64,000 bases of DNA from an uncultured Gammaproteobacteria bacterium. Its GTDB lineage: Bacteria; Patescibacteriota; Patescibacteriia; Magasanikbacterales; GWA2-37-8. Shown here one piece after another: positions 11,588 to 61,851 of this stretch; positions within the stretch are counted from its first letter, which is position 1, and each line of letters begins with the position of its first letter. A model generated the notes under the pieces. It was given only the letters and a program-made list of their open reading frames with translations, was not told the origin of the DNA and made no database searches. Made by a program: the position numbers and the translations under genes. The DNA is taken from assembly GCA_964496095.1 (NCBI GenBank), contig CAZBWU010000004.1:21366-85365 (forward strand), given 5' to 3'.

Positions 11588-11977
11588 ATGATGAAATTGA
11601 AAAAAATATTTGCTATTTTTGCTATGGCTTTAGTGATGGTATCTGCAACTCCAGTATTGGTAAGTGCTGATATTGGATCAGAAGCTGATCCGTTGGGTTT
11701 AAACCCAGTAGCTGCTACTGGTCTTGGTAAAAAAGATATTCGCGTAACAATAGCAAGTATCATTAAAACTGCAATGGGATTACTTGGTATCGTTGCTGTA
11801 GTTATTATCCTTATCGGTGGTTTTAAATGGATGACAGCTGGTGGAAGTGAAGAAGGTGCTGATGAAGGTAAAAAATATATCTTCTCAGGTATTATTGGTT
11901 TGGCCATCATTTTGTCGGCCTACGCTCTCGCTACTTATGTTATCAATAGCTTGATTCAAGCCACAACCGGCGTTTAG
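11588..11977 (+). CDS. VirB2/TrbC-like pilin-family protein (array member 4)
   Basis: Signal peptide, core IILIGGFKWMTAGGSEEGADEGKKYIFSGIIGLAIILSAYAL; RBS GGGGGTG upstream. Confidence 0.55.
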   Translation: MMKLKKIFAIFAMALVMVSATPVLVSADIGSEADPLGLNPVAATGLGKKDIRVTIASIIKTAMGLLGIVAVVIILIGGFKWMTAGGSEEGADEGKKYIFSGIIGLAIILSAYALATYVINSLIQATTGV

Positions 11978-12093
11978 TTCTTTAAACAGAGAATAAGAGG
12001 CGCGTTTGATCTGTTTGCTTTCCTAAGTAAACATTTCCCATGGGAATCAGACGCGCCATCCTCTGTTAAAATATACCTGTCAATTCGACCAAA

Positions 12094-12168
12094 GTGGAGG
12101 AATACCTTAAACATAGTGTTTGCAAAAACCAAGTTTAAGGCATCCCTCGGCTACGCTCGGGATGACAA
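12094..12168 (+). repeat. Dispersed palindromic repeat, family A (copy 1)
   Basis: GTGGAGGAATACCTTAAACATAGTGTTTGCAAAAACCAAGTTTAAGGCATCCCTCGGCTACGCTCGGGATGACAAAC is near-identical to 49595-49672. Confidence 0.6.
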
Positions 12169-12190
12169 ACGTTTTTCAATAAAGTGTATG

Positions 12191-12802
12191 TTTAAAAAAA
12201 CATTTTTGATTTTAGCTTTACTGGGTTTTATAACACCCGTTTTTGTTTTTGCAGATAAGTATGGTATAGACAAAGCTGCTAACGGAACAGACTTGATTCA
12301 AAGCTCTCTGTCTGTGCCTGAATTAATCGGAAGTGTTATTGGGACCGCCCTATCATTTGTCGGTATAATATTTTTCCTTTTGATTTTATATGCTGGTTTT
12401 CTGTGGATGACCGCATTTGGTAATGATGAAAAAGTGACAAGTGCAAAAAGTATTATGGAGCACGCGATTTTGGGTTTGATCATAGTTCTTTCTGCTTATG
12501 CTATTTCTAAATTTGTATTTAGTAATCTGCCAGGTGGTGGTGGGCAAACAACTCCAGCTAGCGCTAAGGGCTGTTGTGTTAATCCAGCAACCGGTGGTCA
12601 GATAGAGAATTTAGAATCGCAGTGTGTTCCTAACGCCCAAAATCCTAGAACATGGAAGGCCGGACCGTGTGTTGTTGGTTGTTGCTATGTAACAGTGCCT
12701 CCCGCAGACTGTGAGCCAAGAGCGATGGGCCAAGCAGAATGTCAATTGTGGGGTAATAGAGGTAGTTGGCAACAGGGGGCTTGTGCAAATTCCTGTCCTT
12801 AA
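12191..12802 (+). CDS. VirB2/TrbC-like pilin-family protein with Cys-rich C-terminal extension (array member 5). The likely start is about 12191 (MFKKTFLILALLGF); the track ORF 12116.. runs through an upstream repeat element.
   Basis: Core LILYAGFLWMTAFGNDEKVTSAKSIMEHAILGLIIVLSAYAI, followed by a C-terminal tail of about 90 aa with about 12 Cys. Confidence 0.5.
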   Translation, partial: FKKTFLILALLGFITPVFVFADKYGIDKAANGTDLIQSSLSVPELIGSVIGTALSFVGIIFFLLILYAGFLWMTAFGNDEKVTSAKSIMEHAILGLIIVLSAYAISKFVFSNLPGGGGQTTPASAKGCCVNPATGGQIENLESQCVPNAQNPRTWKAGPCVVGCCYVTVPPADCEPRAMGQAECQLWGNRGSWQQGACANSCP

Positions 12803-12823
12803 TTTTAAATAAGTTGATGTATT

Positions 12824-13198
12824 ATGAAAAAAATAATCATACCTGTGATAATAATTGGTATATTTTCATTAGTAGTTTTTGCCTCAGCCCAGGGTTTGCA
12901 AGGCGCTAGCGGAATGTTGGAAAAAGTTGGTGGTGCAAATGGTGAGAATATCGGTGTAACAGGGGATCTGCCTACAGCTATATCAACAGTAATTAAAGCC
13001 GTTCTATCTTTAGTGGGGACTATATTTTTGGTTTTGACTATCTATGCAGGTATTATGTGGATGACAGCTGCTGGGGATGAAGAAAAAGTTACAAAAGCAA
13101 CCTCAATTATAAGGATGGCAGTGATTGGTTTGGTAATAGTGATGTCTGCTTATGCTATTACTTACTTTGTGACAAGTAAGTTGGGCGCTTTAAAATAA
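12824..13198 (+). CDS. VirB2/TrbC-like pilin-family protein (array member 6)
   Basis: Core TIYAGIMWMTAAGDEEKVTKATSIIRMAVIGLVIVMSAYAI; near-identical core to member 7. Confidence 0.6.
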   Translation: MKKIIIPVIIIGIFSLVVFASAQGLQGASGMLEKVGGANGENIGVTGDLPTAISTVIKAVLSLVGTIFLVLTIYAGIMWMTAAGDEEKVTKATSIIRMAVIGLVIVMSAYAITYFVTSKLGALK

Positions 13199-13245
13199 AA
13201 TTAATATATGGGCTTAAAGCTCGTATAGTCTCATTCGTTTCGATT

Positions 13246-13620
13246 ATGAAAAAATACTTTTTAGCATTTTTGGTAAGTATAAGTTTGTTTGGAGGTTTAG
13301 TTGTGCCTGTTTTAGCTCAAACTGAACCTGATTTGTCTGTTCAGGTTGCTGAAAAAAGCGGTTATGGTCAAAATGGTGCACCTAATATATCTGAAACTGT
13401 TGGTAGAATAATTAGAATAATCTTAGGATTACTCGGTACTATATTTTTAGGCCTGACCGTATACGCAGGCGTGCTGTGGATGACAGCTGCTGGGGATGAA
13501 GAAAAAGTTACAAAAGCAACTGGAATAATAAGAATGGCAGTAATCGGCCTAATTGTTATTTTGGCTTCTTATAGTCTTAGTTATTTTGTTTTGGATAAAA
13601 TTTTTGAAGCCACATTATAA
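13246..13620 (+). CDS. VirB2/TrbC-like pilin-family protein (array member 7)
   Basis: Core TVYAGVLWMTAAGDEEKVTKATGIIRMAVIGLIVILASYSL. Confidence 0.6.
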   Translation: MKKYFLAFLVSISLFGGLVVPVLAQTEPDLSVQVAEKSGYGQNGAPNISETVGRIIRIILGLLGTIFLGLTVYAGVLWMTAAGDEEKVTKATGIIRMAVIGLIVILASYSLSYFVLDKIFEATL

Positions 13621-13625
13621 AATGT

Positions 13626-14105
13626 ATGAATAATCATAAAAACATTTCTCTAAAAATATTTTTAACACTTTTATTTTTTTCTTCTATTTTTTGTTCTCTT
13701 GTTCCCGGTTCAGTTTTGGCTGCCACTTCTTCGATTCGTGAAGATGCTTTTAGCCAGTTAAATTCTGCCGCCGGTACTGGTGGTGCTGATTTTGGTGCGT
13801 ATAAAGACCCTCGCGAAACAGCCGCAAAAATTATTAAGATAGCCCTTGAGTTAGTAGGGACAATTTTTATTGCGTTGGCAGTTTATGCGGGTTTTTTATG
13901 GATGACAGCTGGGGGCGGGGAAGAAAATATTGCAAAAGCTACCGGTATTTTAAGGATGGCAGTTATAGGGTTGATTATTATTTTGACAGCATATGCCCTT
14001 ACCGTTTTTGTTTTTGAGAGTCTTTTAAGAAGCACTTCAGACAATAATAACGTGACTGATATTTGTCCGGAGAACAACCCAGCTGACCCAAATTGCGCAC
14101 TATAA
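13626..14105 (+). CDS. VirB2/TrbC-like pilin-family protein with short Cys-pair C-tail (array member 8)
   Basis: Core AVYAGFLWMTAGGGEENIAKATGILRMAVIGLIIILTAYAL; C-terminal ...CPENNPADPNCAL. Confidence 0.6.
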   Translation: MNNHKNISLKIFLTLLFFSSIFCSLVPGSVLAATSSIREDAFSQLNSAAGTGGADFGAYKDPRETAAKIIKIALELVGTIFIALAVYAGFLWMTAGGGEENIAKATGILRMAVIGLIIILTAYALTVFVFESLLRSTSDNNNVTDICPENNPADPNCAL

Positions 14106-15522: not shown

Positions 15523-15876
15523 ATGTTTAAAAAGGTGTTTCTTGTTTTCTTGTTTTCTTTAGCAATGTTATGTTCTGTGGCTCCTGTTTTTGCTCAAGAT
15601 TTTGGTTTACAAGCCACAGCTGAGAAAGCTCAGTATGGTGAAACAACCGACATTTATTCAATGATTGGCACAATTTTGCGTTTAGGGCTCTCGGCAATAG
15701 GTATAATTTTTTTAGCCGTGATGTTTTATGCAGGAATGCGTTGGATGACAGCTCGCGGCAATGAAGAATTTGCTACCAAGGCCAAAGAGGCTATGTTTGC
15801 TGCTATGATGGGCTTTTTCTTGGTTGTTGCTGCTTATGGCCTCACCCTCTTTGTTTTTAGTAAGTTGGTAAAATAA
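15523..15876 (+). CDS. VirB2/TrbC-like pilin-family protein (array member 9, separated from the array by the glycosyltransferase and two tRNAs)
   Basis: Signal peptide, core VMFYAGMRWMTARGNEEFATKAKEAMFAAMMGFFLVVAAYGL. Confidence 0.55.
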   Translation: MFKKVFLVFLFSLAMLCSVAPVFAQDFGLQATAEKAQYGETTDIYSMIGTILRLGLSAIGIIFLAVMFYAGMRWMTARGNEEFATKAKEAMFAAMMGFFLVVAAYGLTLFVFSKLVK

Positions 15877-16978: not shown

Positions 16979-17039
16979 TTATTTAAAAGAAGCTGGTTTG
17001 AGGACACATAGACCTTTTTGGTCTGTAGCTCTCAAATCA

Positions 17040-17100
17040 TCTTCGCCACGCTTAGCGTGGTTATTGTCCCGCTTAGCGGGACAGAAAGTACTAAAGTAAT
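17040..17100 (+). promoter_or_regulatory. Structured pnp leader with three consecutive hairpins
   Basis: GCCACGCTTAGCGTGGT, GTCCCGCTTAGCGGGAC and AGTACTAAAGTAATACTTTAGTA palindromes immediately upstream of the pnp ATG. Consistent with an RNase III-processed autoregulatory leader. Confidence 0.45.
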
Positions 17101-24594: not shown

Positions 24595-27850
<3,256 letters not shown>

Positions 27851-29015: not shown

Positions 29016-29039
29016 ATTTTTTTTGTTCCACCTTTTGTA

Positions 29040-29520
29040 ACCAAAAGCTGGAGTGAAAAGTTTCCGAAGCCTTATACTCGCCGTCGGTACTTCCATCGGT
29101 TCAAACTCACTGTTGTCCTGAACTCAATCGGCCGTCTCTAACGGCCGATCTCACACAGCAGGACAACTTCCAGTCGCTCAAGCGACTGGCAACCGCTCGT
29201 TTTCACCGTGGCAAGTACACGCCGTTTTGTATAGGCTCGGATAGACAATCGTTGTTGTTGGTGCGAGACTTGAAATTAGGAGGTAGCAGACAGAGATGAG
29301 CCGGAGCGGTTCTTCAAAAGAATTCGCCCTGCTGTTTGAGTCCGCCCAAGGCGGATGAGTTCAGGGCGGAAGCGAGGGTGAGTCCTGTCTGGCTCCGAGT
29401 AGTTTCATTAGCTCGCGCTTCTTGCTTACTTCTTCTAAAGAAGTAAGGAAAAGTACTTTATCCACAGAAAAGCTGTCAGAAAAAAATTGACAGCTTTTTT
29501 TGTCTATGTTATGCTTATTT
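29040..29520 (+). ncRNA. Unidentified GC-rich, highly structured noncoding segment (candidate structured RNA); strand unknown
   Basis: No ORF in the track across about 480 nt. GC is clearly above the local background. Nested palindromes: GTTGTCCTG...CGGCCGTCTCTAACGGCCG...CAGGACAAC; CCAGTCGCTCAAGCGACTGG; GCCCTG...TCCGCCCAAGGCGGA...CAGGGC; CTTACTTCTTCTAAAGAAGTAAG. A terminal AGCTGTCAGAAAAAAATTGACAGCTTTTTTTG terminator precedes the downstream gene. Confidence 0.3.
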
Positions 29521-29530
29521 TAGCCAAAAT

Positions 29531-43583: not shown

Positions 43584-43639
43584 AATTTATTTTTGTTTGT
43601 GTGGGACGCTTAGCGTCCCAGGTACAACGCTTAACGTTG

Positions 43640-43712
43640 TGGGTCGCGTGGGGATCGAACCCACGACCTTATCCTTAAGAGGGATCTGCTCTACCAGCTG
43701 AGCTAGCGACCC
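43640..43712 (-). tRNA. tRNA-Lys (anticodon CTT)
   Basis: Minus-strand GGGTCGC TAGCTCAGCTGGTAGAGC...anticodon loop CTCTTAA...GTGGGTTCGATCCCCAC GCGACCC-A. Confidence 0.7.
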
Positions 43713-43835
43713 GATTGTGCATTGACTATGCTTTATCGGAAAAATTTATTTTATTTATAACTGATTATAGTGTGTCGCTAGCGAGGCTGTAAGCTGCCTG
43801 CCCCGCTACTGCGGGGAGCTAGCGACCCGGTTGTT

Positions 43836-48285: not shown

Positions 48286-48361
48286 AGTACTCTAATTTGA
48301 TTTTTCATCTCTATTTAGGTAAGATGGGCTAATGGAAATACAAAATATTATGCCGATTTTG

Positions 48362-48420
48362 CCTCAGCAAAATCGAGCATCCACGATCTCTATGCGAATC
48401 GAGATCGGGACAGATCAAAA
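48362..48420 (+). repeat. Two-hairpin structured repeat, family B (copy 1)
   Basis: GCCGATTTTGC-CTCA-GCAAAATCGAG CATCCA CGATCTC-TATGCGAATC-GAGATCG GGA. Confidence 0.6.
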
Positions 48421-49558
48421 ACACTGGGATCAGTGGCTTGTAGACAACGCAAGCTCGGGAAATTTTACTCAGTCTTGGGCTTGGGGCGATGTTTTGATTG
48501 CAGAAGGAAAAAAGGTAGAACGATTGGTAGTGGTAGAAAATGGTGAAGTGTTAGCGCAAGCGCAGGTGGTTTATAGCCAGATTTTTTTTAGTTGGCAGTA
48601 TGCTTTTTGCTCACAAGGACCCATTATTAGTTCACAGTTTGCAGTTCATAGCCTGCCTGCCGGACAGGCAGGTTCGCAGGTTTACGAATGCATTTTAAAA
48701 TATTTAGAAAATAAAAACTGTATTTTTTTTAGAGTAGAGCCCGAAACAATGGTTCCCAGTTCCAAGTTTGCAGTTCAGAAAACAATTGATATAAATCCAT
48801 CTGCGACGTTAGTTTTAGATTTGAATAAATCTTTAGATGGTTTACTTGGAGGTATGCACAGTAAAACTAGATATAATATTCATCTGGCAGAAAAGAAAAA
48901 TTTGGAAATTAAAAATGAAAAGAACTTGGAAGTATTTTGGGGCTTGATGAATAAAACCGGCAGTCGAGATAAGTTTGGTTTGCACCATAAGAGTCATTAT
49001 GAGAAGGTCCTAGCTTCGCCAATGGTGTATCAATTAACGGCTTATCACCGCCTAAGTGGGACCCCGCCTCATGGCGGTGGCGAACAAGATAAGCCGGTGG
49101 CTTGTGCTGTCTTTGTTAGATTTGGCAATACATTTACTTATCTTTACGGCGCTTCGGATTATGAATTCAGAAATTTGATGGCGCCATATCTGTTGCAATG
49201 GGAAGGAATGAAAATGGGAAAAAAATTTGGTTGTGAGCGATATGATTTTTTTGGGGTGGCACCACGGCTAAATGTCATTCCCGCCACAAGCGGGAATCCA
49301 GACAATTTGAACGTACCCTGGATTCCCAATCAAGTTGGGAATGACAACGGACAAACCGGACAGGGATCCTTCGGGGCGTTAACCTCTCAGGATGACAGTT
49401 ATAAATACGACTCCAAGCATCAGTATGCAGGTGTCACTCGTTTTAAATTAGGTTTTGGTGGTGCATCTCAACAAATGCCAGGCACTTTTGATTTAGTGAT
49501 TGATAGAAAAAAATATTTTATTTATGGACTGTTGAGAAAATTACGGCGACTGTTTTAA
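48392..49558 (+). CDS. FemAB-family peptidoglycan bridge-formation (aminoacyl-tRNA-dependent) transferase. The start is probably MRIEIG at about 48392; the track ORF (48332) reads through a repeat element.
   Basis: SGNFTQSWAWGDVL...VVYSQIFFSWQYAFCSQGPI...HSKTRYNIHLAEKKNLEIK typical of FemX/FemA. Contains a Gly/Asn-rich insertion (about 50 aa) near the C-terminal third. Confidence 0.65.
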   Translation: MRIEIGTDQKHWDQWLVDNASSGNFTQSWAWGDVLIAEGKKVERLVVVENGEVLAQAQVVYSQIFFSWQYAFCSQGPIISSQFAVHSLPAGQAGSQVYECILKYLENKNCIFFRVEPETMVPSSKFAVQKTIDINPSATLVLDLNKSLDGLLGGMHSKTRYNIHLAEKKNLEIKNEKNLEVFWGLMNKTGSRDKFGLHHKSHYEKVLASPMVYQLTAYHRLSGTPPHGGGEQDKPVACAVFVRFGNTFTYLYGASDYEFRNLMAPYLLQWEGMKMGKKFGCERYDFFGVAPRLNVIPATSGNPDNLNVPWIPNQVGNDNGQTGQGSFGALTSQDDSYKYDSKHQYAGVTRFKLGFGGASQQMPGTFDLVIDRKKYFIYGLLRKLRRLF

Positions 49559-49562
49559 GTGC

Positions 49563-49672
49563 GTTGTCATTCCGACCGAAGGAGCTTCTGCGATTGAGTG
49601 GAGGAATCCCTTAAACATATTATTTGCAAAAACTTAGTATAAGGGATCCCTCGACTTCGCTCGGGATGACAG
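49563..49672 (+). repeat. Dispersed palindromic repeat, family A (copy 2, longest)
   Basis: GTTGTCATTCCGACCGAAGGAG...GGAGGAATCCCTTAAAC...TAAGGGATCCCTCGACTTCGCTCGGGATGACAGC; internal inverted repeats GGAATCCCTTA/TAAGGGATCC and GTCATTCC/GGGATGAC. Confidence 0.6.
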
Positions 49673-55674: not shown

Positions 55675-55732
55675 ATCATTTCATTTTAAATCTCCACCGC
55701 CATGAGGCGGGGTCCCGCTGTAGCGGGATAAA

Positions 55733-58017: not shown

Positions 58018-58040
58018 GAATAGAAAAGATACGTCCTCGT

Positions 58041-58100
58041 GCCGACTTTGCTTCGGCAAAGTCGAGCATCCACGATTCTGTGCGAACAGAATCGGGATCG
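58041..58100 (+). repeat. Two-hairpin structured repeat, family B (copy 2)
   Basis: GCCGACTTTGC-TTCG-GCAAAGTCGAG CATCCA CGATTCTG-TGCGAA-CAGAATCG GGA. Both stems are preserved by compensatory changes relative to copy 1. Confidence 0.6.
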
Positions 58101-58120: not shown

Positions 58121-58360
58121 ATGTTCCAAATGTATATTTTGAAACTTATTGACGGGTCATATTATGTTGGTAGCACTGAGAACTTAGAAAAACGACTGGA
58201 TAAACATTCGAAAGGAAGGGTTAGTTCGACTAAGAGTAAGTTACCGTTTACATTGGTGTATGAAGAATCATTTGTGAGTAGGAGCGAAGCTCAGAGTCGT
58301 GAGTATCAGATTAAAAAATGGAAAAGTAGAAAAGCGATTGAAAGGTTAATTGGTAAGTAG
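58121..58360 (+). CDS. GIY-YIG nuclease-domain protein (small, UPF0213-like)
   Basis: YILKLIDGSYYVGSTENLEKRLDKHSKG matches GIY-x10-YIG...R...H; 79 aa. Confidence 0.7.
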   Translation: MFQMYILKLIDGSYYVGSTENLEKRLDKHSKGRVSSTKSKLPFTLVYEESFVSRSEAQSREYQIKKWKSRKAIERLIGK

Positions 58361-58562: not shown

Positions 58563-59708
58563 ATGATCACTCATAGAGTTACCACTCAACTTGCGCCTGA
58601 ACCGCCAGTGCGTTTTTATCGTACTATTGCTGTTACTTTTTTAGTTGTCACTTTGCTTTTGTTAGGTGTGATAATATTTTTTACTTCCAAAAAAGCTTCT
58701 ATTGTTATTGTTGCCAAGACTGATAATAAAAATGTAAATCTAATGGTAGATGTTGGTGAAAGAAAAAATGGCGACATGTCTATTTTAGGTCTTGTGACCA
58801 CTACTAAGTTTAGTTATTCTCAAAGATATTCTCCAACCGGAAATAAAACAACCGATGGTCTGGCTGGTGGGGAAGTGACTTTGTATAATGAAACTTCTGC
58901 TCCGCAAACTTTGGTAAAGACTACTAGGCTACTCACATCTAGTGGTGTTTTGTTCCACTTATCAAATCAAGTTATTGTGCCAGCTAAAGGAGATGTAGTC
59001 GCTACGGTCTATGCAGATCAACCGGGAGTGACTGGTAATATTGGTCCAAGCAAGTTTACTATACCAGGTCTTAATGAAGAAAAACAAAAAGTTATTTATG
59101 CTTCCAGCGACAAAGATATGAGTGGAGGTGTTCGCACTATCGGTGTGCTTAGCGCTGAAGATATCAAATCCGCCAAAGTTGATTTCTCAACCAAGATAAA
59201 ACAAGCTGTAGAAAAATCTTTGTCTCCAGTTGGTTCGTATAATCAAAAATTACTTTTTGTTCCGGACAATAACGTAGTAGTTGATAAAGATATTGGTCAA
59301 GAAGTTTCTGAATTTAATTTGTCTGGCACGAGCACTGTAGTAGTTGTGTATTACAATAACGAAGACCTCAAAACACTTTTATCAAAAGAAGTTGCGAATC
59401 GAGTTGATGCCACTACCGAAAAAGCTTTGTCTATCGGTAAAGATTCTCAAGTGACACTAGCTAGTTATGATTTGGAAAAACAAAAAGCGCAATTATCAGT
59501 TTATCAGGATGTGCTTGTTACCTTAGATGTTAATGCTGAAAAATTAGCCGTAAATAATTTCTTTGGCAAGAAAAAAGATGAAATAGAAAGGTATGTTTTT
59601 GGTCTCGGCCATGTGGTCGGAGTAGATGTTAAGTTTTCACCTGGTTGGATCCGCACTGCGCCATCAGTTCCAGACAAGGTGCAGGTAGTGGTGAAAAATG
59701 TAGAGTAA
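58563..59708 (+). CDS. Hypothetical membrane-anchored protein with a large extracytoplasmic domain
   Basis: Single N-terminal TM (IAVTFLVVTLLLLGVIIFFTS), beta-rich Thr/Val/Ser-rich remainder; no recognisable domain. Confidence 0.4.
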   Translation: MITHRVTTQLAPEPPVRFYRTIAVTFLVVTLLLLGVIIFFTSKKASIVIVAKTDNKNVNLMVDVGERKNGDMSILGLVTTTKFSYSQRYSPTGNKTTDGLAGGEVTLYNETSAPQTLVKTTRLLTSSGVLFHLSNQVIVPAKGDVVATVYADQPGVTGNIGPSKFTIPGLNEEKQKVIYASSDKDMSGGVRTIGVLSAEDIKSAKVDFSTKIKQAVEKSLSPVGSYNQKLLFVPDNNVVVDKDIGQEVSEFNLSGTSTVVVVYYNNEDLKTLLSKEVANRVDATTEKALSIGKDSQVTLASYDLEKQKAQLSVYQDVLVTLDVNAEKLAVNNFFGKKKDEIERYVFGLGHVVGVDVKFSPGWIRTAPSVPDKVQVVVKNVE

Positions 59709-59716
59709 TTGACTCT

Positions 59717-59763
59717 GTTAAATCCCCGCTAAGCGGGGTCGCCGAAGGCGAATTTAACTGGGT
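59717..59763 (+). repeat. 47-nt direct repeat, copy 1 (GTTAAATCCCCGCTAAGCGGGGTCGCCGAAGGCGAATTTAACTGGGT)
   Basis: Identical to 59878-59924. Internally palindromic: CCCCGCTAAGCGGGG and TCGCCGAAGGCGA hairpins nested inside GTTAAAT...ATTTAAC. Confidence 0.7.
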
Positions 59764-59877
59764 TGACAATCTAATTGGTTTAGATTAAGATAAATTAAAA
59801 GCGCGTTAATAAGAGAACCAGCCCAGTTGTGCAAAGCGCAATATGGTACCACTCTCTGAGTGCTTGTAGTTCACCCC

Positions 59878-59924
59878 GTTAAATCCCCGCTAAGCGGGGT
59901 CGCCGAAGGCGAATTTAACTGGGT
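59878..59924 (+). repeat. 47-nt direct repeat, copy 2
   Basis: 47/47 identical to copy 1; separated by a unique spacer of about 114 nt. Confidence 0.7.
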
Positions 59925-59971
59925 AAAAAAGTGAAACGTTCGGGTGGAACCGTCTTAAATAACATTTAGGA

Positions 59972-60009
59972 CCCCGATATACAGAATTTTTGTATATCGG
60001 GGTTTTTGT
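59972..60009 (+). terminator. Rho-independent terminator upstream of thrS
   Basis: CCCCGATATAC-AGAATTTTT-GTATATCGGGG-TTTTT. Confidence 0.7.
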
Positions 60010-60096
60010 TTAAATAAATTTAATTTAATAAATCGACTAAACAAAGTACACATATATTCATTCGCCCCGCTTAGCGGGGGCTAACTCATTTCGTAT

Positions 60097-61851
60097 ATGA
60101 ACCCAGAAAAATTAGACCACATGCGCCACTCTGCCGCTCACATGCTTGCTGCTGCGGTGTTAGAATTATACCCAGGCACCAAACTGGCTATTGGTCCAAC
60201 CATTGAAAATGGTTTTTATTATGATTTCAAATTTCCAGAAGGCGTTTCGGTTTCAGAAAATGATTTGGAAAAAATTGAAGAAAAAATGAAGAGTATTGCT
60301 AGTGGAGCGCATTCTTTTGTGCGCAAAGAAGTTTCTGTAGATGAAGCCAAAAATTTTGAAAAAGATCAGCAATTTAAATTGGAACTTATTGAGGATTTTG
60401 CTAAAGAAAGTAAAACGCTTACTTTGTATGAATCAGGTCCTTTTACTGATCTGTGTCGTGGTGGCCATGCGGAAAACACAAAAGAGATTCCGCTTGATGG
60501 TTTGAAACTACATAAAGTAGCTGGGGCTTATTGGCGTGGGAGTGAAAAAAATCCTATGTTAACCAGAATTTACGGGTTATTGTTTGCCAACAAGAATGAG
60601 CTAGATGAGTATTTGGCAATGCTTGAAGAAGCCAAAAAACGAGATCATCGCAAGATTGGTCAAGAACAAAATTTGTTCTTTTTTGATGATCTAATTGGTA
60701 AAGGTTTAGTCTTATGGCAACCAAATGGCACAATTATTCGTGATGAAGTAGAAAAATTTGCTAAGGAAGTTGAGCAGCAGTATGGTTATGTGCGTGTGTC
60801 TACTCCGCATTTAGCAAAAGAAGAAACCTATCTTACTTCCGGTCACTTACCATACTATAAAGATAGTATGTATCCGGCTATGGTTATGGATGATGGTACC
60901 TATTATCTCAAAGCCATGAACTGTCCTCACCACCATGTGATTTATCGTCATGAGATGCGAAGTTACCGCAGTCTACCTGTGCGTATTGCCGAATACGGCA
61001 CTTGTTATCGTAATGAACTTTCGGGCGCTTTGGCTGGATTGTTGCGTGTACGTGCGCTTACTATGAATGACGCCCACATATATTGCCGCAAGGATCAGAT
61101 TAAACAAGAGTTTAGAAGTGTGTTAGAAATGACCATGCAGTACTTTAAAGTTTTTGGTCTATCAAATTACTGGTTCCGTTTGTCAAAATGGAGTTCTGCG
61201 CATACTGATAAATATATCAATGAACCAGAGAACTGGGAAATTGCCGAACAGTCTTTGCGAGAAGTATTGCAAGAAATGGGAGTGCAGTTTACTGAAGCCG
61301 AAGACGAAGCTGCTTTTTATGGACCAAAGGTGGATGTGCAGTTTAAGTCTGTGGTTGGTCGAGAAGAGACAATGTCTACGGTCCAGCTTGATTTTGCGGC
61401 CAAGAAACGGTTTGAACTTAAGTATACTGATGAAACTGGCCAGGAAAATAATGAAGTATTTGTTATTCACCGCGCCCCGTTATCTACCCATGAACGCTTT
61501 ATGGCTTTTTTGATTGAGCATTATGCCGGCGTATGGCCACTATGGCTTTCACCTGTACAAGTGTTACTTGCTCCAGTTTCTTCTAAGCACGTAGATGGCG
61601 CTAGGGTTTTGCTTAAAGAATTAGAAGAAGCAGGTATCCGTGTCGCGACAGACGAAGCCGACGAAACTATTGGCAATAAAGTTCGAAAAGCCGCTGGGCA
61701 GAAAATTCCTTATATCGTGGTCGTGGGAGATAAAGAGCTTGGCGGTGAGCCCTGGATGATTAGGGTGCGGGGTCAAAAGGATCAAGTTCAGATGACTAAG
61801 CAAGAATTCATAGAAAGAGTAAAGAAAGAAATTAAGGAAAAAATTAGCTGA
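60097..61851 (+). CDS. thrS: Threonine--tRNA ligase (lacks the N-terminal TGS domain)
   Basis: Editing-domain HSAAHML motif, class II core (motif 2/3), C-terminal anticodon-binding domain; 584 aa. Confidence 0.9.
   Translation: MNPEKLDHMRHSAAHMLAAAVLELYPGTKLAIGPTIENGFYYDFKFPEGVSVSENDLEKIEEKMKSIASGAHSFVRKEVSVDEAKNFEKDQQFKLELIEDFAKESKTLTLYESGPFTDLCRGGHAENTKEIPLDGLKLHKVAGAYWRGSEKNPMLTRIYGLLFANKNELDEYLAMLEEAKKRDHRKIGQEQNLFFFDDLIGKGLVLWQPNGTIIRDEVEKFAKEVEQQYGYVRVSTPHLAKEETYLTSGHLPYYKDSMYPAMVMDDGTYYLKAMNCPHHHVIYRHEMRSYRSLPVRIAEYGTCYRNELSGALAGLLRVRALTMNDAHIYCRKDQIKQEFRSVLEMTMQYFKVFGLSNYWFRLSKWSSAHTDKYINEPENWEIAEQSLREVLQEMGVQFTEAEDEAAFYGPKVDVQFKSVVGREETMSTVQLDFAAKKRFELKYTDETGQENNEVFVIHRAPLSTHERFMAFLIEHYAGVWPLWLSPVQVLLAPVSSKHVDGARVLLKELEEAGIRVATDEADETIGNKVRKAAGQKIPYIVVVGDKELGGEPWMIRVRGQKDQVQMTKQEFIERVKKEIKEKIS

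Follow-up and report, generated by a model that had tools for sequence, protein, structure and literature searches.

The subject of this analysis is the region upstream of thrS, the gene for threonyl-tRNA synthetase (ThrRS), in a 64,000-nt stretch of contig CAZBWU010000004.1 (assembly GCA_964496095.1, hereafter the window) from an uncultured bacterium placed by GTDB in the Magasanikbacterales. Our analyses suggest that the switch at thrS is a T-box riboswitch, and that the two perfect 47-nt direct repeats at the same locus are recent selfish or neutral double-hairpin insertion elements lodged at permissive sites around the riboswitch leader; we regard this combined reading as probable, with a good deal of room for doubt. 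The repeats are most likely passengers, and the T-box the regulator. In the proposed mechanism, an RNA started by the promoter at 59763-59791 would display an ACC-A threonine specifier on a short Stem I, and the NCCA end of uncharged tRNA-Thr would pair with UGGA of a 7-nt bulge. This pairing would stabilize the antiterminator (59941-59976) against a stronger terminator (59971-60008), resulting in control by transcription attenuation. A GC-rich element of ~53-55 nt would have been inserted or copied recently at two tolerated sites, copy 1 landing between the stop codon of the upstream gene and the -35 hexamer and copy 2 between Stem I and the discriminator, with an inverted half-copy in the spacer ahead of the start codon. 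Such elements would form a genome-specific population of short palindromic or double-hairpin DNA that spreads at the DNA level into intergenic, leader, and coding DNA, and copies would survive where they are harmless.

The leader is bounded on the left by an upstream gene of 381 aa (58563-59708, plus strand), an open reading frame (ORF) matching no Pfam family and ending in TAA at 59706-59708, and on the right by thrS (60097-61851, plus strand), which encodes a 584-aa ThrRS recognized by the Pfam families tRNA_SAD, tRNA-synt_2b, and HGTP_anticodon and by its homologs, which place the window in Candidatus Magasanikbacteria (Patescibacteria, or Candidate Phyla Radiation, CPR). The order of these two genes is kept in L032, the relative with the closest leader, in L089, and in the contig of P0002. 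A sigma-70-type promoter, TTGACA-17 nt-TAAGAT, occupies 59763-59791 on the plus strand, at the same site as in L032 and other relatives. It is followed by a short-form Stem I of ~67 nt (59799-59865, plus strand), supported by its fold and by conservation and covariation in 12 leaders, which consists of a basal helix, an asymmetric 7/2 loop, the helix AGAGA/UCUCU, an internal loop ACCA/ACCAC, the helix GCC/GGU, and then a variable apical hairpin. The probable threonine specifier, ACC-A, lies at 59848-59851 on the 3' side of the internal loop, and we take this 3' ACC rather than the 5' ACC as the specifier. A purine-rich linker, AAAAAAGUGAAACGUU (59925-59940, plus strand), read from the sequence and kept in L032 and L013, fits the RRRNG ... 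AA motif that borders Stem III in canonical T-boxes (PMC7778990); no Stem III is present here. The T-box sequence and antiterminator (59941-59976, plus strand), defined by covariation in the 12 leaders and a hand-drawn fold, comprise helix A1, in which CGGG (59941-44) pairs with CCCG (59973-76), the 7-nt bulge UGGAACC (59945-51), and helix A2, formed by GUCUUAAAU-AAC-AUUUAGGAC (59952-72). The 3' strand of the antiterminator (CCCG, 59973-76) is overlapped by the 5' arm of an intrinsic terminator (59971-60008, plus strand; arms 59971-59986 and 59988-60003, then UUUU(G)UUU), apparent from its inverted repeat and from folds, and relatives show the same arrangement. The energy of the hand-drawn antiterminator is -11.5 kcal/mol, as compared with -29.2 kcal/mol for the terminator state. 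An earlier model-made description of this DNA, the sequence-only reading, had placed a promoter between the repeats and a terminator after them, and both are confirmed, the terminator at 59971-60003 with a U-tract after it. It had also proposed an attenuator, which exists but appears to be a T-box riboswitch whose conserved parts do not include the repeats, as L032 and L089 are without them; the small RNA that it envisaged between promoter and terminator would simply be the prematurely terminated T-box leader.

The T-box assignment draws on a comparison of leaders. CGGGTGGAACCG was found upstream of thrS in ~20 CPR loci fetched with ThrRS, sometimes before a small operon ending in thrS, and a T-box-like leader was seen in L004-L014, L018, L019, L025, L027, L032, L041, L089, and L001 as well as at 59797-60008 in the window. 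Across the 12 leaders of the same subtype, the series ACCN-GCC-CAG...AUGGU-ACCA, the UGGAACC bulge, CGGG/CCCG, and CCCCG are nearly or fully invariant. The stretch CGGG-UGGAACC-G, helix A1, and the specifier ACC-A upstream of thrS do not vary at all, and A2 covaries, with 5 pairs changed on both sides. When helix P2, which flanks the specifier loop, was taken together with A2, 95.6% of the cells were paired and 9 pairs were changed on both sides; none of 500 shuffles matched the observed value, and slid partners were only 29-47% paired. The P1 helix was excluded from this test because it had been registered by its own pairing. A second subtype (L005, L008, L019, L027) presents the specifier in a terminal loop, CUACCAA. 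The leader of L032 is minimal: it has no Stem II, IIA/B, or III, and it measures ~145-165 nt when counted from slightly 5' of Stem I through the terminator.

Compared with the known T-box family (RF00230), the leader carries the GGGUGGNACCG T-box sequence in the 7-nt bulge UGGAACC, an antiterminator that competes with a terminator, and, in an internal loop of Stem I ahead of thrS, an ACC (Thr) specifier with a purine after it. It differs in that its ~67-nt Stem I has no recognizable AG bulge or distal-loop platform. At the apex of Stem I there is a simple, variable hairpin, and neither an AGVGA nor a distal-loop motif was seen in the leaders; the basal 7/2 loop ends in GA and could be K-turn-like. 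No Stem II or IIA/B was recognized in the leader class, and Stem III is missing in most members. Going by these features, we conclude that the thrS leader probably acts like a T-box and carries the defining sequence and structural logic of one, while lying outside formal Rfam membership. It may represent an unrecognized minimal T-box class without a Stem I platform, Stem II, or IIA/B, and usually without Stem III. A literature search for T-boxes or palindromic elements in CPR/Patescibacteria returned nothing relevant, although its coverage was limited and does not prove novelty.

The other component of the locus is GTTAAATCCCCGCTAAGCGGGGTCGCCGAAGGCGAATTTAACTGGGT, which occurs twice in direct orientation (59717-59763 and 59878-59924) with 47 of 47 positions identical and a start-to-start spacing of 161; similarity on the left side adds 12 nt, giving 59 nt at 93% (from 59705 and 59866). 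The final base of copy 1 is the first T of the -35 hexamer TTGACA. The copy at 59878 sits in the predicted leader RNA. Each copy folds as an outer stem around two hairpins, H1 (CCCCGC-UAA-GCGGGG) and H2 (UCGCC-GAAG-GCGA), with loops UAA and GAAG, at about -26 to -27 kcal/mol versus about -15 for shuffles (z about -4), and the three-way junctions form on either strand (-26 to -30 kcal/mol, z -3.8 to -5.1). The termini are inverted, GTTAAAT...ATTTAAC, and are lengthened by ACYC/GGGT. A third piece, an inverted half-copy on the minus strand (60063-60084), was delineated by inverted repeats, by comparison of the spacer with L032 and L089, and by the centroid fold. It includes the 15-nt core in inverted orientation at 60065-60079, 100% complementary to the core of the 47-nt repeats, and its reverse complement, GTTAGCCCCCGCTAAGCGGGGC, agrees with GTTAAATCCCCGCTAAGCGGGGT in 19 of 23 positions. 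This piece lies within a window-specific spacer of ~45 nt, 12-15 nt ahead of the thrS ATG at 60097, of which CGCCCCGCTTAGCGGGGGC, the inverted core, stops 15 nt short. The perfect repeats 161 nt apart, their two hairpins within an outer stem, and the inverted core near the thrS start had all been described by the sequence-only reading, and each of these points holds. It had further called for a genome-wide search for the core; on the 64-kb window, such a search gave 4 matches to the core pattern CCCGCTNAGCGGG against 0.04 expected; sister families were also found in coding DNA, as discussed below.

Relatives lack these pieces. In L032, the 3' end of the upstream gene is ~93% identical to that of the window, and the leader is nearly identical outside the inserted pieces and the terminator-to-ATG spacer, but exactly 53 nt are missing at copy 1 and 55 nt at copy 2, together with the third hairpin. 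L089 (ThrRS 82% identical) and ~10 further leaders are also without all three pieces, and their T-box is complete. By parsimony, the pieces are therefore insertions in the lineage of the window, and because the leaders that lack them have a complete T-box, they are not needed for the switch. Insertion 1 (59710-59762, plus strand, 53 nt; -26.1 kcal/mol as a three-way junction), defined by alignment with L032 and L089, lies between the stop codon of the upstream gene and the -35 hexamer, and its edges are ambiguous by a few nt. Insertion 2 (59870-59924, plus strand, 55 nt; -26.9 kcal/mol), a gap in the alignments of both L032 and L089, lies in the 20-nt linker that leads from Stem I to the purine tract preceding the antiterminator. 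It forms an autonomous three-way junction with an outer stem of GUUAAAU/AUUUAAC plus ACCC/GGGU, in whose H2 ViennaRNA additionally pairs the last loop G with the leading U. When the leader was folded with and without copy 2, Stem I and the terminator were identical and the energy difference equaled the folding energy of the element itself, so that the insertion is structurally self-contained. As a separate observation on the thrS gene, ThrRS of L032 (1556-3061) and of the window (60097-61605) are ~90% identical over residues 1-190 and ~40% over the catalytic core (190-480) when BLASTP alignments are judged by eye, with the last 23 aligned residues identical and the leader and upstream-gene DNA at ~93%; this mosaic suggests domain-scale replacement or recombination in thrS.

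Related hairpins occur elsewhere in the window. The apex CGCTTAGCG has 6 matches as compared with 0.19 expected. All of them lie between genes, with both orientations represented, and they are distributed over the thrS region, the pnp leader, and the tRNA-Arg/tRNA-Lys spacer, whereas none was found in ~80 loci of other genomes. In the pnp leader, two tandem hairpins carry this apex (17046-17083, plus strand), including the core variant that the sequence-only reading had noted upstream of pnp (17066-17082). In the tRNA-Arg/tRNA-Lys spacer, the first of two tandem hairpins carries it (43602-43640, plus strand). A predicted three-way junction on the minus strand at 43775-43825, upstream of tRNA-Lys, shares H1 in the form CCCCGC-AGUA-GCGGGG and has a different outer stem and H2. 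Another double hairpin is intergenic, between der and a LytR-family gene (55691-55728, plus strand). The variant that had been assigned to the downstream side of der does exist there (55712-55729) but lies 5' of der in the sense of transcription. Further sites are in a femAB-family gene (48332-49558), which contains insertions at 48350-48409 (60 nt), 49046-49081 (36 nt), and 49268-49381 (114 nt). The first two have second, intergenic copies at 58040-58098 and 55691-55728, respectively, the femAB copy of the latter double hairpin being inverted. All three insertions are in-frame and clean, and protein and DNA alignments show them to be absent from 7 homologs and from the closest DNA, L096. The presence of sister double-hairpin families inside femAB coding DNA points to elements that insert at the DNA level, and away from a regulatory site with a set position. 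Several families are visible, with 2-6 copies apiece in the 64 kb and some of these in-frame in coding DNA, and the 47-mer itself was seen only at the thrS locus. The sequence-only reading had held that a regulatory role would be undone by a random distribution of the core that took in coding regions; this condition is borne out in part, as sister families do lie inside femAB.

Other observations were made near these elements. The pnp-leader hairpins adjoin a segment of ~56 nt that is almost identical in three genomes; in the window (16990-17045, pnp 5' leader), as in L094 and L095, it forms a long imperfect hairpin that is near-identical although PNPase is just 88% identical. By analogy with the RNase III-dependent autoregulation of pnp in E. 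coli, it is likely to be a conserved pnp leader or processing structure. The DNA directly 3' of femAB (49558-49600) is 100% identical to L096, and a 75-nt dispersed repeat with hairpins occurs at 12093-12167 and 49597-49671 with 88% identity. About 20 nt past the 58040-58098 element is a stand-alone ORF of 79 aa with a GIY-YIG nuclease domain (58121-58360); a tie between this ORF and the mobility of the hairpin elements would be pure speculation. In two groundwater contigs from Hainich, L085 (~960-1010) and L086 (~2520-2555), long perfect hairpins of the form (GAA)GGCGACCCCGC-TAA-GCGGGGTCGCC(TTC) have the same H1 as the window element, with flanks that are a circular permutation of its H2 (TCGCC/GGCGA). 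This likeness may reflect common ancestry, or hairpin-module shuffling among groundwater CPR genomes.

A number of results weigh against the reading of a T-box joined by mobile hairpins. For the T-box, the Rfam model RF00230 matched 59797-59979 over its full length with only 14.3 bits, as compared with a gathering score of 93 (E = 0.79), and it was on account of this weak score that the assignment was tested by comparison of leaders. The relatives fared no better, with no match in 20 loci at the gathering score and none in 10 loci at E <= 1. A search of the whole window at the gathering score gave nothing in the thrS leader region; a permissive search gave noise alone for the 47-mer and the weak T-box match, which a narrower permissive search lost. 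There is no tRNA-Thr gene in the window (searched with ARAGORN) or in the fetched loci, and pairing of the discriminator base of tRNA-Thr, which would be U73, with the final A of UGGA stays a prediction. For the elements, no consistent target-site duplication was found at the two thrS sites or the three femAB sites, and no transposase or nuclease partner was identified. The two copies disagree over the 6-8 nt that precede the identical core on its left, which makes the boundaries of the element uncertain. This element is known from two full copies and one half-copy, all within 370 nt, and local duplication or gene conversion would explain the identity of the copies as well as transposition. 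An exact 27-mer had no further copies among GTDB species representatives (the window itself being 64 kb of a genome), and a 20-mer had 5 matches in JGI metagenomes, none of them the same element and all just same-apex hairpins. At the site of the pnp-leader hairpins of the window, relatives carry other GC-rich hairpins, which is replacement rather than addition. Lastly, the same-apex hairpins adjoin genes for translation and RNA metabolism (thrS, pnp, tRNAs, rnc), a neighborhood that could hint at function. In other searches, the element had no match in viral contigs, blastn against plasmids and phages found none, and a structural descriptor (outer stem plus two hairpins) applied to all loci recovered only the two copies with the long outer stem. 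A 15-mer of a sister element had 31 matches in viral contigs, judged to be in the range of chance with neither a computed expectation nor inspection of the matches.

Among the alternatives, the one that survives best, although we consider it unlikely, is that the insertions have been co-opted as functional RNA. The leader copy would then serve as an accessory domain of the linker, a surrogate for Stem II or Stem III, or would form a duplex with the half-copy, an interrupted helix of ~20 bp in the read-through mRNA that could act as an RNase III processing stalk or link read-through with the initiation of translation. When 59797-60130 is folded, the centroid structure indeed pairs the 5' half of copy 2 with the third piece in a duplex that encloses the discriminator, drawing on complementarity that is perfect over 15 nt and extends to 19/23, and the gene for RNase III is within the window; the minimum-free-energy fold, on the other hand, retains the local hairpins. 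The promoter hexamer and the leader reading survived the insertions. In L010 and L011, other double hairpins occur in the same T-box class at the Stem III position, which implies that added hairpins in the linker may be useful, but insertion 2 of the window sits 5' of the RRRNG tract and not at that position. Copy 1 is upstream of the promoter and thus outside the leader RNA, the two closest leaders and ~10 others do without the pieces while keeping a complete T-box, and the in-frame sister elements of the femAB gene argue for spread at the DNA level.

More doubtful still is the possibility that these hairpins are selected gene-end structures, that is, terminators, insulators, or 3'-end stabilizers, with the CGC-UUA/UAA-GCG apex as a preferred stable hairpin and copy 1 terminating or stabilizing the mRNA of the upstream gene. 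Positions lend this some appeal, since copy 1 starts 9 nt past a stop codon and the 43775-43825 junction lies 10 nt past that of rnc, and every CGCTTAGCG hairpin is intergenic. GC-rich perfect hairpins are over-represented in the window (50 versus 7-17 in shuffles), and similar long hairpins with the same apex occur in the low-GC groundwater contigs L085 and L086. However, no U-tract follows the element on either strand of the window sequence, termination would do harm in the thrS leader, which holds an identical copy, and in L032 the interval from the stop codon to the -35 hexamer is free of structure. Gene-end selection also leaves unexplained the in-frame sister copies and the 47/47 identity, which includes the AT-rich outer stem.

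We find it improbable that the 15-bp near-palindrome CCCCGCTAAGCGGGG is a DNA or RNA operator at which a repressor, or ThrRS, binds three thrS-promoter sites cooperatively. In favor of an operator, the three copies lie at about -67, +94, and +274 from the predicted transcription start, and related palindromes occur near pnp and the tRNA genes; the sites are lineage-specific, however, and arrived as identical 47-nt blocks that include non-palindromic sequence, and thrS already possesses a conserved T-box. Overall, the GCTNAGC core shows no enrichment (17 versus 13.5), a count that also disposes of a restriction-site explanation. The thrS operator of E. coli likewise places structured hairpins in a thrS leader, but it mimics the anticodon arm of tRNA-Thr and overlaps the ribosome-binding site, whereas here the loops are UAA and GAAG, unlike the anticodon loop of tRNA-Thr, only one of the three pieces lies near the start codon, and the regulation appears to be of the T-box kind. 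The operator idea of the sequence-only reading is thus not supported in the form of an E. coli-type ThrRS operator. Finally, a mis-assembly is hardly credible: the source is a metagenome-assembled genome, in which chimeric joins can generate short repeats, but L091, which is an independent NCBI entry for the same organism, matches the whole thrS region without a difference, and the Logan unitigs of runs SRR10036081 and SRR10036082 stop at 59746 and start at 59894, exactly the branch points that a true 47-nt repeat forces on a k=31 graph, which shows the repeat to be real.

Several known kinds of element were considered as identities of the repeat and rejected. As the sequence-only reading had held, the arrangement is not a CRISPR (clustered regularly interspaced short palindromic repeats) array, which has at least 3 regular direct repeats of 23-50 nt separated by unique spacers of comparable length; there are just two direct copies, and the 114-nt spacer consists of the promoter and Stem I. 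A tandem 161-bp duplication is rejected because the sequences after the two copies are unrelated. An integron attC site needs 5'-RYYYAAC ... GTTRRRY-3', and the element reads 5'-GTTAAAT...ATTTAAC-3' on both strands, the opposite order. A dif/Xer site has GTTAAAT alone in common with it, and a tRNA-like element was excluded by ARAGORN. The inverted termini recall a miniature inverted-repeat transposable element (MITE), but no consistent target-site duplication accompanies them at the thrS or femAB sites.

The closest parallels of the hairpin elements, by analogy of form, appear to be the Rickettsia palindromic elements (RPEs) and the mitochondrial GC clusters or double-hairpin elements (DHEs). 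RPEs invade coding DNA, non-coding DNA, and RNA genes (PMC1166351). They resemble the present elements as short palindromic repeats of a small, AT-rich, host-dependent genome that occupy non-coding, RNA or leader, and in-frame coding sites; here, the occupied sites are femAB, tRNA spacers, and the leaders of thrS and pnp. RPEs are, however, ~100-150 bp long, with hundreds of copies in defined sequence families, whereas the units found here are 36-60 nt (with one block of 114 nt), show 2-3 copies per family in 64 kb, and belong to an unrelated phylum. The comparison is one of behavior and form. Mitochondrial GC clusters are palindromic and transposon-like, and they merge and shuffle (PMC4478555). 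Yeast GC42 and the DHEs of Allomyces share with the window elements the form of GC-rich palindromes of ~40-50 nt in an AT-rich genome, often as two adjacent hairpins, and a sporadic distribution with presence/absence polymorphism. A similar modularity is seen here, as the H1 CCCCGC/GCGGGG is common to elements whose H2 and outer stems differ, and one element is also present as a half-copy. The known clusters are organellar, on the other hand, and those of yeast are flanked by short AG/ACT repeats, none of which were seen here. A broader likeness is to MITEs, repetitive extragenic palindromic (REP) sequences, and their paired forms, REPINs (for example, Correia elements and systems of REP with REP-associated tyrosine transposase, RAYT), which are non-autonomous, structured, bounded by inverted repeats, mostly intergenic, and genome-specific, and which can adjoin promoters and be transcribed into hairpins. 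The present elements differ in that target-site duplications were not found and that neither a RAYT nor a transposase was identified, no genome-wide search for a RAYT having been made; REPs are moreover extragenic by definition, whereas sister elements here lie in coding DNA. A check for the 5' GTAG of REPINs found GTAA/GTAG 8-12 nt left of the core (abutting insertion 2 in the MAFFT alignment), but these motifs pre-exist in L032.

The window has further features that stand apart from the elements discussed above. An intergenic stretch of 515 nt (29016-29530) is rich in GC hairpins, including TCCGCC-CAA-GGCGGA, has no Rfam match at the gathering score, and may be an unannotated structured RNA. 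A group I intron (26704-26906; 58 bits in Rfam) lies within the 23S rRNA gene (24606-27833), and an array of paralogous genes for pilin-like proteins of a type IV secretion system (11588-14105 and 15523-15876) forms direct repeats with 60-80% identity that carry a TGGATGACAGCTG motif.

Small palindromic insertion elements, as the repeats appear to be, are of an ordinary kind; the novelty lies in the lineage, the unusually small modular form, and the position inside a riboswitch leader. The conserved minimal thrS T-box class in CPR is a more valuable by-product than the repeats. If the class is real, a minimal T-box would recognize tRNA-Thr with far fewer contacts than any characterized T-box, and its ~145-nt architecture, as found in L032, would help to establish which of the contacts made by T-boxes can be dispensed with. 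Because Rfam misses the thrS leaders of Magasanikbacteria, riboswitch censuses of CPR would undercount T-boxes. On a practical level, repeats of this type split short-read assemblies at predictable places, as with the Logan unitig ends. We put forward only tentatively the wider idea that CPR may hold mobile DNA of an undescribed kind, tiny (36-60 nt), modular, and made of double hairpins, along with a linked minimal T-box class. If this were true, such elements would enter leaders and tRNA spacers, and proteins in-frame, with no duplication of the target, and would reshape riboswitches. At thrS, the element would give the T-box linker a three-way-junction domain, the duplex with the half-copy would enclose the discriminator, and together these could alter the set-point or the processing of the thrS mRNA. 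From an evolutionary point of view, the locus would offer a dated, clean example of how very small palindromic elements colonize both a protein gene and the leader of a riboswitch in a reduced, AT-rich genome of the episymbiont type, and the parallel with Rickettsia RPEs and mitochondrial GC clusters suggests that "hairpin parasites" may have arisen convergently in streamlined genomes.

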